Part shown: in pieces, positions 7,280 to 20,845 of the stretch | Layout of the letters: every line of letters begins with the position of its first letter | How positions within the stretch are numbered: position 1 is the first letter of the stretch | Assembly: GCA_013239625.1 (NCBI GenBank) | Contig: MU053810.1 | Location: 1-64,000, forward strand | From: Lama guanicoe | Lineage: Eukaryota | Direction: 5' to 3' | DNA: 64,000 nucleotides | Position numbers and translations under genes: made by a program | The notes under the pieces: model-generated | Database searches by the model: none | What the model was told of the DNA's origin: nothing | Seen by the model: only the letters and a program-made list of their open reading frames with translations

Positions 7280-7365
7280 CTTTGTCTGGGAACTATAAAG
7301 AGTGCCCGTACCAACTTCTTCCTATTTGCTTTTGTGTTCATGTTCATGCAAAAATCCATTGCTGC
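7280..7365 (-). pseudogene. UPF2: UPF2-like exon (MIF4G-2 region), AAMDFCMNMNTKANRKKLVRALFIVPRQR
   Basis: 86-bp exon with ttttctcctatag acceptor and AG|gtaggt donor; translation matches mammalian UPF2 as recalled; phase 0 to phase 2. Confidence 0.93.
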
Positions 7366-8756
7366 CTATAGGAGAAAAAGCAAACTTTTTTCTTAAAAAT
7401 ATCTCGATTTAGCTACTGAAAGGAGAAACCCTGCCTGCTACAATGGATTTCTAGTAGTCCTAAACAGTTTAGAATGGTTTTAAGACACTGGTATTACAAA
7501 CACAACCCAAACTTCAATATATACAGGTTAAGAAAACAACAAGTTTAAGTTATAGTCTAAAAAAGAAATAAACTGTTACCAAAATTCTTTTGGGCATCTC
7601 AGTATTTTCCATCTATAGGTACACATGATTGTTTTATTATTAATCCCAGTCTTTAGGTTGATTTGAGGATCCGATGCAAATAAAAGATCCTCAGATTTAT
7701 ACCTAAACTATAAAGGATTTCAACTCTTCACTATAGACAGTGAAACATCTCCCATTAGGTTAAAACTTTTGATGAAACAAATGGCTCAACCAATGTTGAT
7801 TAGATTCAAACCCAGAAAACTAACTCATATTGAAAGTTCATTCACCAAGATTGAAACTTTATATCAATATTAGCCAAGAGAGTAAAACTCATTTAAATTT
7901 TTCTTCTTCTTATAAAGGGGGTATAAAATAAATTTTATTAAAATTTATACTTTATAACAGTAAAGCTTATTAGAGCTAATTAGAATAACAAAGAGGAAAG
8001 TTGAAAATACACTAAAGTTCCTTCAAGTAATTCACCCATAGGAAACATCAAAAAATTATGGACGAGTGTAATAAAAATCCCAAAGGTCATGTATCCGGAA
8101 AAGAAAATTGATTAACATAAGAAAACTTCACACACCCACACACACACAAACTTCTCAAATCAATACTTTTGAAAAAAAATATAGAAAATATAAAGAAAAA
8201 AATTTTAATGGCTAATAACGGCCTTTGTTTCAACACATTCAGAAACACAAAATAAAACGTACTTCAATAACTCTGTTTTAATTATCCATTAAAATGCAAA
8301 TGTACTTTACATAACCTATGAAATACATTTTATAAAACTAGAGAAGGCAATAATCACTTTTCCTACCACAATAATCGAAGGCCAGTTAGATGGGAAAAAA
8401 CCTATAATTCTCAAAAATCTGCAAAGATTAGGAGCTCATACAATATGTCAATGCCTGGTACAAACACTAGTGGTTCAATAAACATGTAGAATAAATGAAT
8501 CAAGACTACATGAAAACTTCTGGAAAAACTGCCAAAATTAATAAATTTGAGGAAATTAAAAAGAAAAAAAAAGCTTCACATGTATATTAATTCTTAGATT
8601 TAACCAGTCCTGCCATTTGGGGAGAAATGGAAGCGAAGACTTAACTGTGGTGGTGTCTACCTGCCTGGGTCACAACTGCTGCCTGACAATTCAATAAGCA
8701 GTTTTTTTTTTGAAAACTTGTTTCAAAACATTTGACGTACGTGAAAGACAGTTCAA

Positions 8757-8895
8757 GGGGAGGCTATATAGCTCAGTGATAGAGTGTATGCCTAGCATGC
8801 ATGAGGTCCTCAGTTCAATCCCCAGTGCCTCCATTAAAAATAAATATATAAACCTAATTACCTAGACCCCCCACATTACCTCCCCCCTAAAATAT
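8757..8895 (+). mobile_element. tRNA-derived SINE (camelid Vic-1-like)
   Basis: ggggaggctatatagctcagtgatagag ... cagttcaatccccagtgcctcc with A/B-box-like motifs, followed by an A-rich 'aaacctaattacc' tail. Confidence 0.85.
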
Positions 8896-9052
8896 AAGAA
8901 ACAAAAGAGTCAACAATCTTTTATTTTATAAGTAAAAGTAAATTTTTCTGATCATCAAATGCATGCAAAAATAAGCATCACCATGAATGATGTTACCAGT
9001 ATAAGTCACATAAAAGAAATCTTCACTTGGGTTTAACTCAAAGAATTCTTAT

Positions 9053-9156
9053 GGTGGGGGGGGTACAGCTCAGTAGTAGAGTGCATGCTTAGTATGCACG
9101 AGGTCCTGGGTTCAATTCTCAGTACCTCCGCTTAAGAAAAAAAAAAGAAAAAAAAA
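9053..9156 (+). mobile_element. tRNA-derived SINE (camelid Vic-1-like)
   Basis: gggtacagctcagtagtagagtgcatgcttagtatgcacgaggtcctgggttcaattctcagtacctcc plus poly(A); approximate TSD aagaattctta / aataattctca. Confidence 0.88.
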
Positions 9157-9899
9157 TAATTCTCAGATTTTTCTATTTCCAAACTACTTTCCCCTCTTAA
9201 GCCGTTTGGACCTTTGCCAATACATATGGAAGAAATTCCTTTCATGCGGAAGCTGACTCCCAGAGGAAACCACTGAGGTCCAACAGAGAAGGGTAGCCTC
9301 CTGTTTTCCACTTGACCCTCCAAGAGCTAAATCAGAATTTGATATACGGTCATTACTGGCAAGAGCTCTTAACAGTGCAGGACACTTTACAGTCCAGATT
9401 CACATGAGCTCTTCTCATTTGACTTTCATCACAGCACTCAACATGGGTGTGGGGCGCAGCAGGCATGTCGAGGTCTCTCTCTCATCCTGTTTATATCTAA
9501 TGAATATATGAAAATTTAGCAGAGGAAAGATTCGATCATATCCCAACCTTACAAAAATAAGCAACTGTTTAAGAGGTAGTTTTGGCTACATTCTACATCG
9601 GAAAGATAAAGGAGACTATCTCTTAAAACAGAAGTAAATGCCGCAATTACTAAGTGTTTGAAAACTATTTACAGACCTAATCGCTCCAAAAGGTAAGCCA
9701 ATTTGGAATCAGTTTCCAGCCTATTTGATTATATGAACAGTTACTGAAATACATCTTAAATTATTTGTAAAAGAGCTAAAACAAGCTGAAAATTGAAAAA
9801 CAGTGTAATGTCTATAGTTCTCTATAGAGGACCTCAAAGCATGATGGGGGAAGAAAAGATAAAAGATTACATTGCACCTTGACCAAAAGATGGCCTAAA

Positions 9900-18528: not shown

Positions 18529-18577
18529 CGTGTTGTAAATAGAATAAGCAGCGAGAACGTGGAATAGGGATTGTTGC
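18529..18577 (-). CDS. USP6NL: USP6NL-like exon, (K)QQSLFHVLAAYSIYNT (isolated fragment)
   Basis: 49 bp with ttttttctag acceptor and ACG|gtaagt donor; phase 2 to 0. Confidence 0.9.
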
Positions 18578-19906
18578 CTAGAAAAAAAGAAAACTTCCGT
18601 TGAACACGACTGAGTTATTTCACATATTTCTACAATTATACACTTAAAAAATAAACAACGGTTTGACTGAAGATAGACAGATAATCTATCTGGACTATCT
18701 ACTATTATAATAAAGAAATGGTCCCAAGCTGAATGCAACAATACCCTGTACAGTCTAAATGTGAGGCTAGATAACGTTCATTCTGACGGAAAGAATTTAT
18801 ACCACAGTGCACAAAGGGCTTCACCGTTTTTAAAATGTGCTGCCCTCTTTCACTGAAGTATTCTCTACACGAAGTCATCCCACAACAGTGGCTAGCCTGA
18901 AGAACCGGGGAACACCATTCTGAAGCCTCATTCACAGCTGGGGGCTCCACCCCGCAGGGCTGGGGCCGTGTCCCCCAAGAGGCGGGACAGGCTGTGAATC
19001 AGCCTCCAAACTCAGGGCTGCCCCTCCTACAGCCAGGGTCCCAGGGCCCAAGACTCAAGGGTGGAAGTGGGGGTGGCTCCACCCTCACGACCGCTCATCG
19101 TCCCCCAACAAAGTGTGTGCTCCCTGTCCCATCACCCTCGGGCTCTGCTGGTCTAGAGGTCCTAGTGCCAAAGAGAGGAGTGTCGCCCCCAGGAGACACA
19201 ACCATTCCCCAGAACTGGAAGCTGAGATGGTCACCCGGCCACTTTGGGCAACAAAAGAGATGACTATACTGAGTGACTGATCCTGGCAACCGGGGGCAAT
19301 GAGCTGCCCGGACACGGTGGACAGAAGGAAGAGTGTGTCGAGAACACAGAGAACACGGAAGGTGCCTCTCAATAAAATCAAACCCTGTGATGAGAGTCAG
19401 TGGAAAACTACAACAGTCAAGTCCAGGCAGGACGTTATAATGGTCCCGACCCCTGAGGAGTAAAGGCTGCAGTCCCTCCACCAGGTGAAGAACCACGACC
19501 AGCTGAGGTACCTGCCGAGGGCAGAGGGAGAACAGACGGGTCGTGGGAAGGTAAATTATGAACCAGCAATGACCACACGCCCAGTACAGAAATGATGGCT
19601 GTAACTGTTACGAGGATTTCTTCCGTAGTTTGGCATGGACGTGTTTGTGTGCGTGCATTTTTTTAATGTGTTTTCTTCCTTCTTTTTTATCATCTAACGT
19701 AAGACGTTTAGTAACAGTTGACTTCACATCACAGCATTCAGGTAACAGAATATCAAAGCAGAAGAGTGAGCACCGCCCAGAGACCCCGCATCCTTCTGTG
19801 CAGAGGGGCTCAACACAAGGTCAGCCGTAAGCAGAACAGCGGCCCCGTGCCAGGCGGAAGTACGGCTTCATTGTCTCATCTGGAAACTAAGCTGACAGGG
19901 GTGCCC

Positions 19907-20291
19907 TGTGACGGCCAGCTCTGCGCGCCCACCTAGCCAAGCTGCAGCCCGTTATCCAAACCCTAATCCAGGTGTTGCTGTGAAGAAATTTTGTAAATGT
20001 AACTGAAATACAGTCAGTTGAATTTAAATAGGGAAGATTAGCCTAGATAATCAGGGAACCCTGATTCCACCCATTAAAAGGCAGGAAGAGCAGATCTGAG
20101 GCTTCCCTGAAGAGGAACCTCCTCCCCTGGGCAGTGGCTTCAGCTCATCCCCAGAGCAGGCCCTTCCCGACGCCGCCTACGGTCTCAACTTGTCCAGTCT
20201 GTCCCTGCAGCTCTGTAAGCCAGCTCCTCACGATAAACCTCTGAGCTTCCGTCCCTTACTGGTTTCCTTTTCTTTGGTTGAACCCTGATAC
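19907..20291 (+). mobile_element. MLT2-like (ERVL) solo LTR
   Basis: Begins tgtgacggcc..., contains 'ccaggtgttgctgtgaagaaattttgtaaatgt', ends 'ctggtttccttttctttggttgaaccctgatac'. Confidence 0.6.
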
Positions 20292-20735
20292 GGAGGTCAG
20301 CAAAACTGTACCTTTCATTCATAAACTGCCACAGTCATTTCATCGCTCATTTTCCTTTTTTTTCTCTTTTGTTCCATCAGTGTGTGGAGTCAAGATTATA
20401 GGGACATACAGATTACTGACACTGTTCTCAAAAGTAATGCAACCTCTCATTTCTTTTCTAAGAGTTTTAATAAACTACCACATATTTAAGAATTCTCAGA
20501 TCATAAAATGACTTTGTAGCAATTTTATAGCACCTACTATATGTCAAAGGTTAAAAATTTAAGTTAAATAGGTTCCTAAATTTTATAAAACATAGACAAA
20601 ATGATCTGCCAAAACTTAAAACCTTCAGAACTGGATTCAAATTATAGTCTATACAAGCTACTCTAAACACATTTTAAGTTGACAAAGACGATTTATAAAT
20701 GCTATTCATATTTTATAATATTAAACTTTACTTAC

Positions 20736-20845
20736 TTAACGCCGTATCTGTCCCTAAACATGATGTGGTCCCTAAATGTGCGGTTGACATCAAGGTCTAT
20801 TTGTCTGATATCAGGTGAACAACCCCGTGCTCTGTGTTTTAATTT
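20736..20845 (-). CDS. USP6NL: USP6NL-like TBC exon with the Arg finger, [36 protein letters not shown](K) (isolated fragment)
   Basis: 110 bp with ctttttcctttccag acceptor and TAA|gtaagt donor; phase 0 to 2; IxxDxxR motif intact. Confidence 0.92.

Follow-up and report, generated by a model that had tools for sequence, protein, structure and literature searches.

The minus strand of the window, by which we mean the whole 64-kb stretch of DNA analysed here, carries seven exons drawn from two different genes, three of them USP6NL-like and four of them UPF2-like. The window itself makes up the opening 64 kb of a scaffold (C1724) that is 7.04 Mb in length, and it contains no ambiguous bases (N). 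Checks of the sequence, together with tblastn searches of the 64 kb using camel USP6NL (P0065 and P0038) and camel UPF2 (P0121 and P0166) as queries, bore out the positions that an earlier note on this DNA had given for these exons. They also agreed with its failure to find the next USP6NL exon or the preceding UPF2 exon between the two groups, as tblastn found only these seven USP6NL and UPF2 exons in the 64 kb, and none for USP6NL residues 1-146. CCDC3 lies head to head with the chimera. The features are as follows:

20845 to 20736, minus strand: USP6NL-like exon a, parental residues 147-183, containing IDLDVNR; 100% identical to C. ferus record P0038
18577 to 18529, minus strand: USP6NL-like exon b, identical to the exon on scaffold C4415
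17720 to 17600, minus strand: USP6NL-like exon c, containing YCQG, with a single derived change at 17691 (Q>H)
12758 to 12560, minus strand: UPF2-like exon A, parental residues 435-500, with a 1-bp insertion of A and three derived changes (I>M, K>R and V>F)
12217 to 12068, minus strand: UPF2-like exon B, with no difference from the parental exon and 100% identical to Camelus bactrianus UPF2 record P0121
10879 to 10776, minus strand: UPF2-like exon C, with a single derived change (N>S)
7365 to 7280, minus strand: UPF2-like exon D, identical to the parent and lying inside an identical tract at 6896-7488
27401 to 28600: CpG island at the start of CCDC3 (GC 0.70, observed/expected 0.96, 142 CpG)
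28059 to 28433, plus strand: CCDC3 exon 1
31193 to 31414: CCDC3 exon 2, with exon 3 at C1724:82292-82567

Elsewhere in this part of the scaffold, a Pfam scan of 13 long ORFs between 23 and 64 kb returned no families, and no tandem repeats were found between 20 and 64 kb.

The splice signals of the seven exons were found as claimed, with 14 of 14 AG/GT dinucleotides intact. The proposed phase match also held: USP6NL-like exon c ends in phase 1 and UPF2-like exon A starts in phase 1, so that the two would join in frame as ...HAMH-E-HGPGID. The motifs IDLDVNR and YCQG, which we take to be the arginine-finger and glutamine-finger motifs, are both retained.

Both gene pieces in the window are partial second copies. 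The parental genes, which the earlier note had expected to be intact elsewhere, were located complete on scaffold C4415 (USP6NL) and on the window's own scaffold (UPF2), each with a local assembly defect, namely a gap in USP6NL and a garbled exon A in UPF2. All other USP6NL exons lie at C4415:1687102-1738471, and the exons covering UPF2 residues 1-1270 follow one another in order at C1724:657707-730750, about 650 kb from the chimera; UPF2 residues 1124-1189 matched orphan contig C5645 only. The two copied segments and the point at which they meet are as follows:

1 to 15742, minus strand: UPF2-derived segment, an inverted copy of 16.6 kb of true UPF2 (C1724:689177-672585)
15741 to 22965, minus strand: USP6NL-derived segment, about 7 kb copied from USP6NL
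15741 to 15742: breakpoint, where a USP6NL intron (parent C4415:1719936) meets a UPF2 intron (parent C1724:672585)

By blastn, the UPF2-derived segment matches its parent at 96.7% over 1-10064 and at 94.6% over 10081-15742. Since the window stands at the scaffold start, the UPF2-like part is cut off and runs past it. On the USP6NL side, 15741-18857 aligns to C4415:1719936-1716817, 18858-21743 corresponds to a 2684-N gap in C4415, and an interspersed repeat at 21744-22965, presumably L1-like, is collinear with C4415:1714126-1712889 at 86.6%. The introns are retained in the copy and are collinear with those of the parents. A retrocopy (processed pseudogene) and L1 3' transduction were both ruled out, because the copy retains its introns and the junction shows no poly-A. 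A simple large tandem duplication running from UPF2 to USP6NL was likewise ruled out, because the upstream USP6NL exons are missing and the copy is inverted about 650 kb off, on the far side of UPF2.

At the breakpoint, UPF2 homology stops at 15742 and USP6NL homology begins at 15741, and the two introns are joined in the same transcriptional orientation (minus), with the parents kept elsewhere. The three-way alignment revealed 1-bp microhomology and no shared repeat. When compared to the parents, the UPF2 side shows 9 substitutions in the 241 aligned sites of 15501-15742, and the USP6NL side differs at 16 positions between 15780 and 15998. Only 1 of the 29 junction-spanning 31-mers is present in a parent, and within the assembly the junction 30-mer occurs only in C1724 and in a 363-bp orphan contig (C40877); a search of metagenome contigs with the 30-base junction gave no matches.

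These observations bear on whether the USP6NL/UPF2 junction might be absent from the animal, the scaffold end being a misjoin of mis-sorted contigs, which we regard as very unlikely. Such an artefact would fit the position of the fragment at the very start of the scaffold, the mosaic character of the region with its six tracts identical to the parents, the numerous orphan contigs, and the gap in C4415 exactly where window 18858-21743 would belong. However, the junction lies outside any repeat and has only that single base of microhomology, and since both of its sides are 4-5% off the parents, joining the parental loci could not have produced it. In addition, 14 DNA-like runs (three organisms, 6 studies) contain 0.74-0.77 of the words sampled from 10501-20500, compared to at least 0.43 expected from the parental loci alone, a weak point that concerns word share only. 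Judging from the sequence, we take the USP6NL/UPF2 DNA junction to be real.

The copy differs from its parents at 463 of 18,725 aligned sites (2.5%), with a K2P distance of 0.033 once six identical tracts, each of 454-1256 bp, are set aside. Identity within the UPF2-derived segment is uneven, with 500-bp bins ranging from 93% to 100%. The assembly, which is of the short-read type, has interwoven the two copies here, so that some blocks of the window are parental sequence. For at least two of the six identical tracts, natural gene conversion is unlikely to be the only cause, since there are orphan contigs at those places with 94-95% identity to both copies (C22202 at 17941-18158 and C36368 at 4411-4701). 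Another orphan contig, C787, holds a further UPF2-derived piece that is inverted in the same way and carries an internal deletion of 13.7 kb, joining parent position 716720 to 703062.

The CCDC3-adjacent placement rests on a contig that crosses the repeat at 21744-22965, and it could therefore be a misjoin. It is unlikely, in our view, that the chimeric copy is real but larger or situated elsewhere, with a repeat-mediated misjoin accounting for the change to CCDC3-upstream sequence near 22965 and the true copy possessing more USP6NL 5' exons and possibly a promoter. USP6NL homology does end exactly at the edge of the interspersed repeat, leaving a further 44 bp to the parental exon for residues 104-146, and the mosaic assembly shows that copies have been confused here. 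On the other hand, no second, diverged copy of the USP6NL exons for residues 1-146 was found in the assembly, the one extra match (C53485) is 99.8% identical to C4415, and the window itself is free of N.

Despite the in-phase join, there is no continuous open reading frame across the USP6NL-UPF2 junction as assembled. Exon A measures 199 nt, compared to the 198 required by the parental reading; the run at 12659-12655 contains one A too many, which shifts the frame. Because of this 1-bp insertion, the fused frame terminates at a TGA at 12648-12646, which is codon 131 when all seven exons are spliced. An assembly error may underlie this frameshift. Parental exon A (C1724:675588-675782) is garbled in the same assembly, with a TAA and deletions of 2 bp and 5 bp, so that no intact exon A exists anywhere in the assembly, and the sole second witness to the inserted A is an orphan contig from that assembly (C25143). 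When exon A is skipped, the other six exons read through 206 codons without meeting a stop, and a UPF2 form that skips exon A is present in another species' record (P0131); we count both observations against a dead duplicate.

The exon substitutions, all of them derived in the copy, change the amino acid in five of five cases, and the parent keeps the residue of other mammals each time. They fall within 709 comparable exon nucleotides, which leaves the exons less diverged than the copy as a whole at 2.5%. The tally for the new frame (five nonsynonymous, no synonymous, and one indel) involves small numbers, and the exons may be parental sequence within the mosaic.

In terms of domain content, the copy encodes USP6NL residues 147-240, or 94 of the 209 residues of the Pfam TBC domain (121-329 in P0065), and it thus falls short of a complete RabGAP-TBC domain (PF00566). 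The UPF2 portion, residues ~435-618, reaches neither the best MIF4G stretch (777-986) nor the Upf2 domain (1094-1218). UPF2 is characterised by its MIF4G domains and C-terminal Upf2 domain (PF04050), and no whole UPF2 domain is present in the window exons. The earlier note had described an event that joined the TBC core of USP6NL to UPF2. We recover the DNA rearrangement, with introns joined in the same orientation and phases compatible, but what was called the TBC core is less than half of the domain.

Could the locus nevertheless be an expressed chimeric gene, with transcription starting divergently at the CCDC3 CpG island, for example, or at unassembled 5' exons, and with splicing across the junction to yield a USP6NL(147-240)-UPF2 fusion protein or a functional RNA? 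We consider this distinctly improbable. The compatible phases, intact splice sites, low exon divergence, retained finger motifs and open frame of the exon-A-skipped form are all consistent with such a gene. The same is true of the CpG island, the sole one in the window, which, read along the minus strand, is 6.6 kb upstream of exon a and which we count against a dead duplicate. However, the frame is broken at codon 131 as assembled, every substitution is nonsynonymous, the domains are partial, and no USP6NL 5' exons, start-codon exon or promoter for the chimera were found in the window; on these points the chimeric gene proposed in the earlier note is not supported. Protein searches revealed neither a chimeric protein nor any protein with the copy's variants among the matches listed (the best 120 of 827, 56 and 20, with 25 examined in full), a negative that is weak because the libraries show cluster representatives only. 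In RNA runs, the word share was 0.25-0.26, below the 0.43 that would come from the parental loci alone, and we read nothing into this figure either way.

Our preferred reading is that the locus is probably a non-processed chimeric duplicate, an apparently decaying segmental-duplication fragment that is most likely dead. In a camelid ancestor, two pieces, each from the middle of its gene, would have been copied, one of about 7 kb with three exons (USP6NL) and one of at least 16.6 kb with four exons in the window (UPF2). The two pieces would then have been joined end to end via a non-homologous or template-switch junction, whether by end joining or by replication template switching, and the joined pieces would now be found in inverted orientation immediately upstream of CCDC3, some 650 kb away from true UPF2. 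A camelid-specific origin of the chimera is plausible, and the locus probably makes no functional protein.

A dead duplicate of this type accounts for the bad assembly of the region and may also account for odd camel gene models. The locus has the makeup of a non-processed pseudogene in a segmental duplication, in that it is a diverged, intron-containing partial copy with disabling lesions. Its divergence of a few per cent, frameshift and non-homologous junction, as well as the internal deletion in the likely companion contig (C787), are likewise shared with the non-processed pseudogenes and chimeric fragments of mammalian segmental duplications, and we see no essential difference between the chimera and these pseudogenes. 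The case also cautions against taking exon juxtapositions in draft assemblies for new genes.

According to the earlier note, USP6NL is the ancestor of TBC1D3. The chimera resembles hominoid USP6 (Tre2) in that duplicated pieces of a TBC-domain gene and of an unrelated gene stand side by side in one orientation, with the parents retained. A review (PMC12065817) describes duplications and translocations of USP32 and TBC1D3 as having given rise to USP6 21-33 million years ago. USP6 possesses a promoter, a long open frame and documented expression, whereas the chimera described here has a broken frame as assembled, 94 of 209 TBC residues and no 5' exons. The pairing of USP6NL with UPF2 was not found in print among the 15 papers listed of 17 that matched. 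If the chimera were expressed, it would represent a second, independent USP6NL-family TBC fragment recruited into a fusion gene. Highly improbable, in our estimate, is a young camelid gene or regulatory RNA that is transcribed divergently from the CCDC3 CpG island with exon A skipped, giving at least 206 residues that comprise the finger-bearing half of the RabGAP TBC domain, an acidic linker and the first MIF4G-2 helix of UPF2, or else a built-in nonsense-mediated-decay target beside CCDC3.

With regard to the camel records of the two parental genes, one Bactrian camel UPF2 record breaks off precisely at exon D, and exons are missing or aberrant in two camel USP6NL records.

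The window carries three USP6NL-like exons (a to c) and four UPF2-like exons (A to D), given here in transcription order:

20845-20736, minus strand, USP6NL-like exon a, AG acceptor and GT donor
18577-18529, minus strand, USP6NL-like exon b, AG acceptor and GT donor
17720-17600, minus strand, USP6NL-like exon c, AG acceptor and GT donor, ending in phase 1
12758-12560, minus strand, UPF2-like exon A (199 nt), AG acceptor and GT donor, beginning in phase 1
12217-12068, minus strand, UPF2-like exon B, AG acceptor and GT donor
10879-10776, minus strand, UPF2-like exon C, AG acceptor and GT donor
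7365-7280, minus strand, UPF2-like exon D, AG acceptor and GT donor

The exons were found as the earlier note had described them, with all 14 splice dinucleotides intact, and the in-frame USP6NL-UPF2 join that it read is correct because the end of exon c and the start of exon A are both in phase 1. Translated, exon c (40 residues) had 827 protein matches at E<=0.001, with USP6NL of many vertebrates among the best 120 of the 827, and exon B (48 residues) matches a Camelus bactrianus UPF2 record at 100% identity. Using tblastn with two camel USP6NL and two UPF2 records, we found no exons of either gene in the 64-kb window beyond these seven; the window is free of N.

The USP6NL and UPF2 pieces are each a second copy. 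The window makes up the initial 64,000 bases of the 7.04-Mb scaffold C1724, in an assembly of 2.05 Gb and 55,231 contigs, and the search for parental genes that the earlier note had proposed located both. A whole-assembly search with camel USP6NL placed all other exons in order at C4415:1687102-1738471 on another scaffold, including the exon following exon c (C4415:1720938-1721042), which the earlier note had not been able to locate. The equivalent UPF2 search placed the exons for residues 1-1270 in order at C1724:657707-730750, on the strand opposite to the window copy, with one exon matching solely an orphan contig. The four UPF2-like exons in the window duplicate true UPF2 exons at C1724 675589, 676116, 677469 and 681813.

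The fusion of USP6NL and UPF2 DNA is very probably real. Homology to the parents is distributed as follows:

1-10064, UPF2-derived, aligning to true UPF2 689177-679147 at 96.7%
10081-15742, UPF2-derived, aligning to true UPF2 678271-672585 at 94.6%
15741-18857, USP6NL-derived, aligning to C4415:1719936-1716817 at 97.6%
21744-22965, interspersed repeat, collinear with C4415 past its gap, 86.6%

The C4415 match ends at a gap of 2684 N. The repeat beyond it, which we take to be L1-like, matches dozens of genomic copies at ~81-84% over its last 500 bp, and USP6NL homology stops at 22965, 44 bp before the parental exon for residues 104-146, which is absent from the window. About 860 bp of true UPF2 (678271-679147) have no counterpart at window 10064-10081, being either absent from the copy or a post-duplication insertion in the parent. 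The two homologies abut at 15741/15742, where a three-way alignment reveals UPF2 intron up to ...CATCTC and USP6NL intron from CCCCACAGC..., with one base common and no repeat at the breakpoint. Since both flanks differ from their parents there and only 1 of the 29 31-mers spanning the junction occurs in a parental locus, an assembler join of the parental loci cannot explain the breakpoint. Besides the window, one 363-bp orphan contig of the assembly (C40877) contains the junction 30-mer, but as it derives from the same data it is no independent witness of the junction. Sampled words of window 10501-20500 were present at 0.74-0.77 in 14 DNA-like runs (three organisms, 6 studies), the share expected from the parental loci alone being at least 0.43, which points weakly to the copy's presence in other animals.

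Copy and parents differ at 463 of 18,725 aligned sites (2.5%), with the differences clustered: six tracts of 454-1256 bp match the parents at every site, and the remainder has a K2P of 0.033 and 500-bp bins falling as low as 93% identity. At least two identical tracts have orphan contigs 5-6% different from both copies (C22202 and C36368), and 18124-21038 has a second version in three orphans (C5165, C50736 and C46698) that are 98.1-99.8% identical to the window. The likeliest reading is a mosaic in which the assembler or gap filler would have placed one copy's reads in both loci, and the true divergence is therefore probably nearer 4-5%. Mammalian neutral rates are about 1-2.2e-9 per site per year; at 3.3-5% divergence, the duplicate would be very roughly 7-25 million years old.

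On balance, a decaying partial duplicate is more likely than the chimeric gene that the earlier note had proposed: the fusion very probably holds at the DNA level, but an early stop in the assembled frame, partial domains and the substitution pattern speak against a gene. Exon A carries one more A than the parental sequence in the run 12659-12655, and the seven-exon splice terminates at TGA 12648-12646, codon 131. Across comparable exons, all five substitutions are nonsynonymous, one lying in exon c (Q>H), three in exon A (I>M, K>R, V>F) and one in exon C (N>S), and at each the parent keeps the residue of other mammals. By Pfam, the TBC domain spans residues 121-329 of camel USP6NL, of which the copy encodes 147-240; in UPF2, residues 777-986 form the best MIF4G stretch and 1094-1218 the Upf2 domain, and the copy covers about 435-618. 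Neither a chimeric protein nor the copy's variants appeared among the matches listed in word-index protein searches or among the 20 matches of an exhaustive search with 36 copy-specific residues.

A functional chimeric gene would be consistent with the intact splice dinucleotides, with exons that diverged less than introns, and with the 206 open codons obtained when exon A is skipped, an arrangement with a precedent in a UPF2 record without exon A from another species (P0131). The frameshift could also be an assembly error, since the true UPF2 exon A is itself broken and the assembly is thus unreliable there. Compared with the window copy and the C. bactrianus protein, that exon (residues 435-500, C1724:675588-675782) carries an in-frame TAA and deletions of 2 bp and 5 bp; the assembly has no undamaged copy of it, probably through local misassembly of an essential gene. 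Hominoid USP6 is an analogous fusion, documented in a review (PMC12065817). A literature search for USP6NL and UPF2 in camels found nothing.

The duplicate may be the cause of public camel gene models that look disturbed at this locus (protein records P0121, P0038 and P0065). The 626-aa C. bactrianus UPF2 record ends exactly at exon D (...FIVPRQR), the C. ferus USP6NL record omits the exons after ...HAMH, and exon a of the dromedary USP6NL record is a variant that differs at 5 residues, one of them the IxxDxxR aspartate.

The copy lies at the scaffold start, head to head with CCDC3 and 6.6 kb from its promoter:

27401-28600, CpG island (GC 0.70, observed/expected 0.96), the window's only one, containing CCDC3 exon 1
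28059-28433, plus strand, CCDC3 exon 1, 97-98% identical to CCDC3 of other mammals
31193-31414, CCDC3 exon 2
C1724:82292-82567, CCDC3 exon 3

CCDC3 and UPF2 share one scaffold and orientation, fitting what we take to be the human 10p13-14 gene order; USP6NL would presumably sit beyond UPF2, and both fragments would therefore come from within about a megabase. They could have been joined in a complex local rearrangement, via end joining or replication template switching. Another UPF2-derived piece, the 5.4-kb orphan C787 (1-5390; blocks at 93-99%, same inverted sense), has parental 716720 joined directly to 703062 by a 13.7-kb deletion and may continue the copy past the scaffold start. A 300-bp local repeat lies at that join.

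An old copy of the region spanning the CCDC3 promoter and exons 1 and 2 (window 26929-34867) lies at C7234:46204-51767 with 75-78% DNA identity, and its CCDC3-like frames contain stops; further 73-82% copies of window 32.5-38.9 kb lie on C6711, C5601, C243 and C1686. Three tRNA-model matches (31.6-48.1 bits), at 8762-8833 (plus), 9059-9130 (plus) and 28663-28733 (minus), sit in short interspersed repeats recurring around the locus and presumably represent tRNA-derived SINEs rather than tRNA genes.
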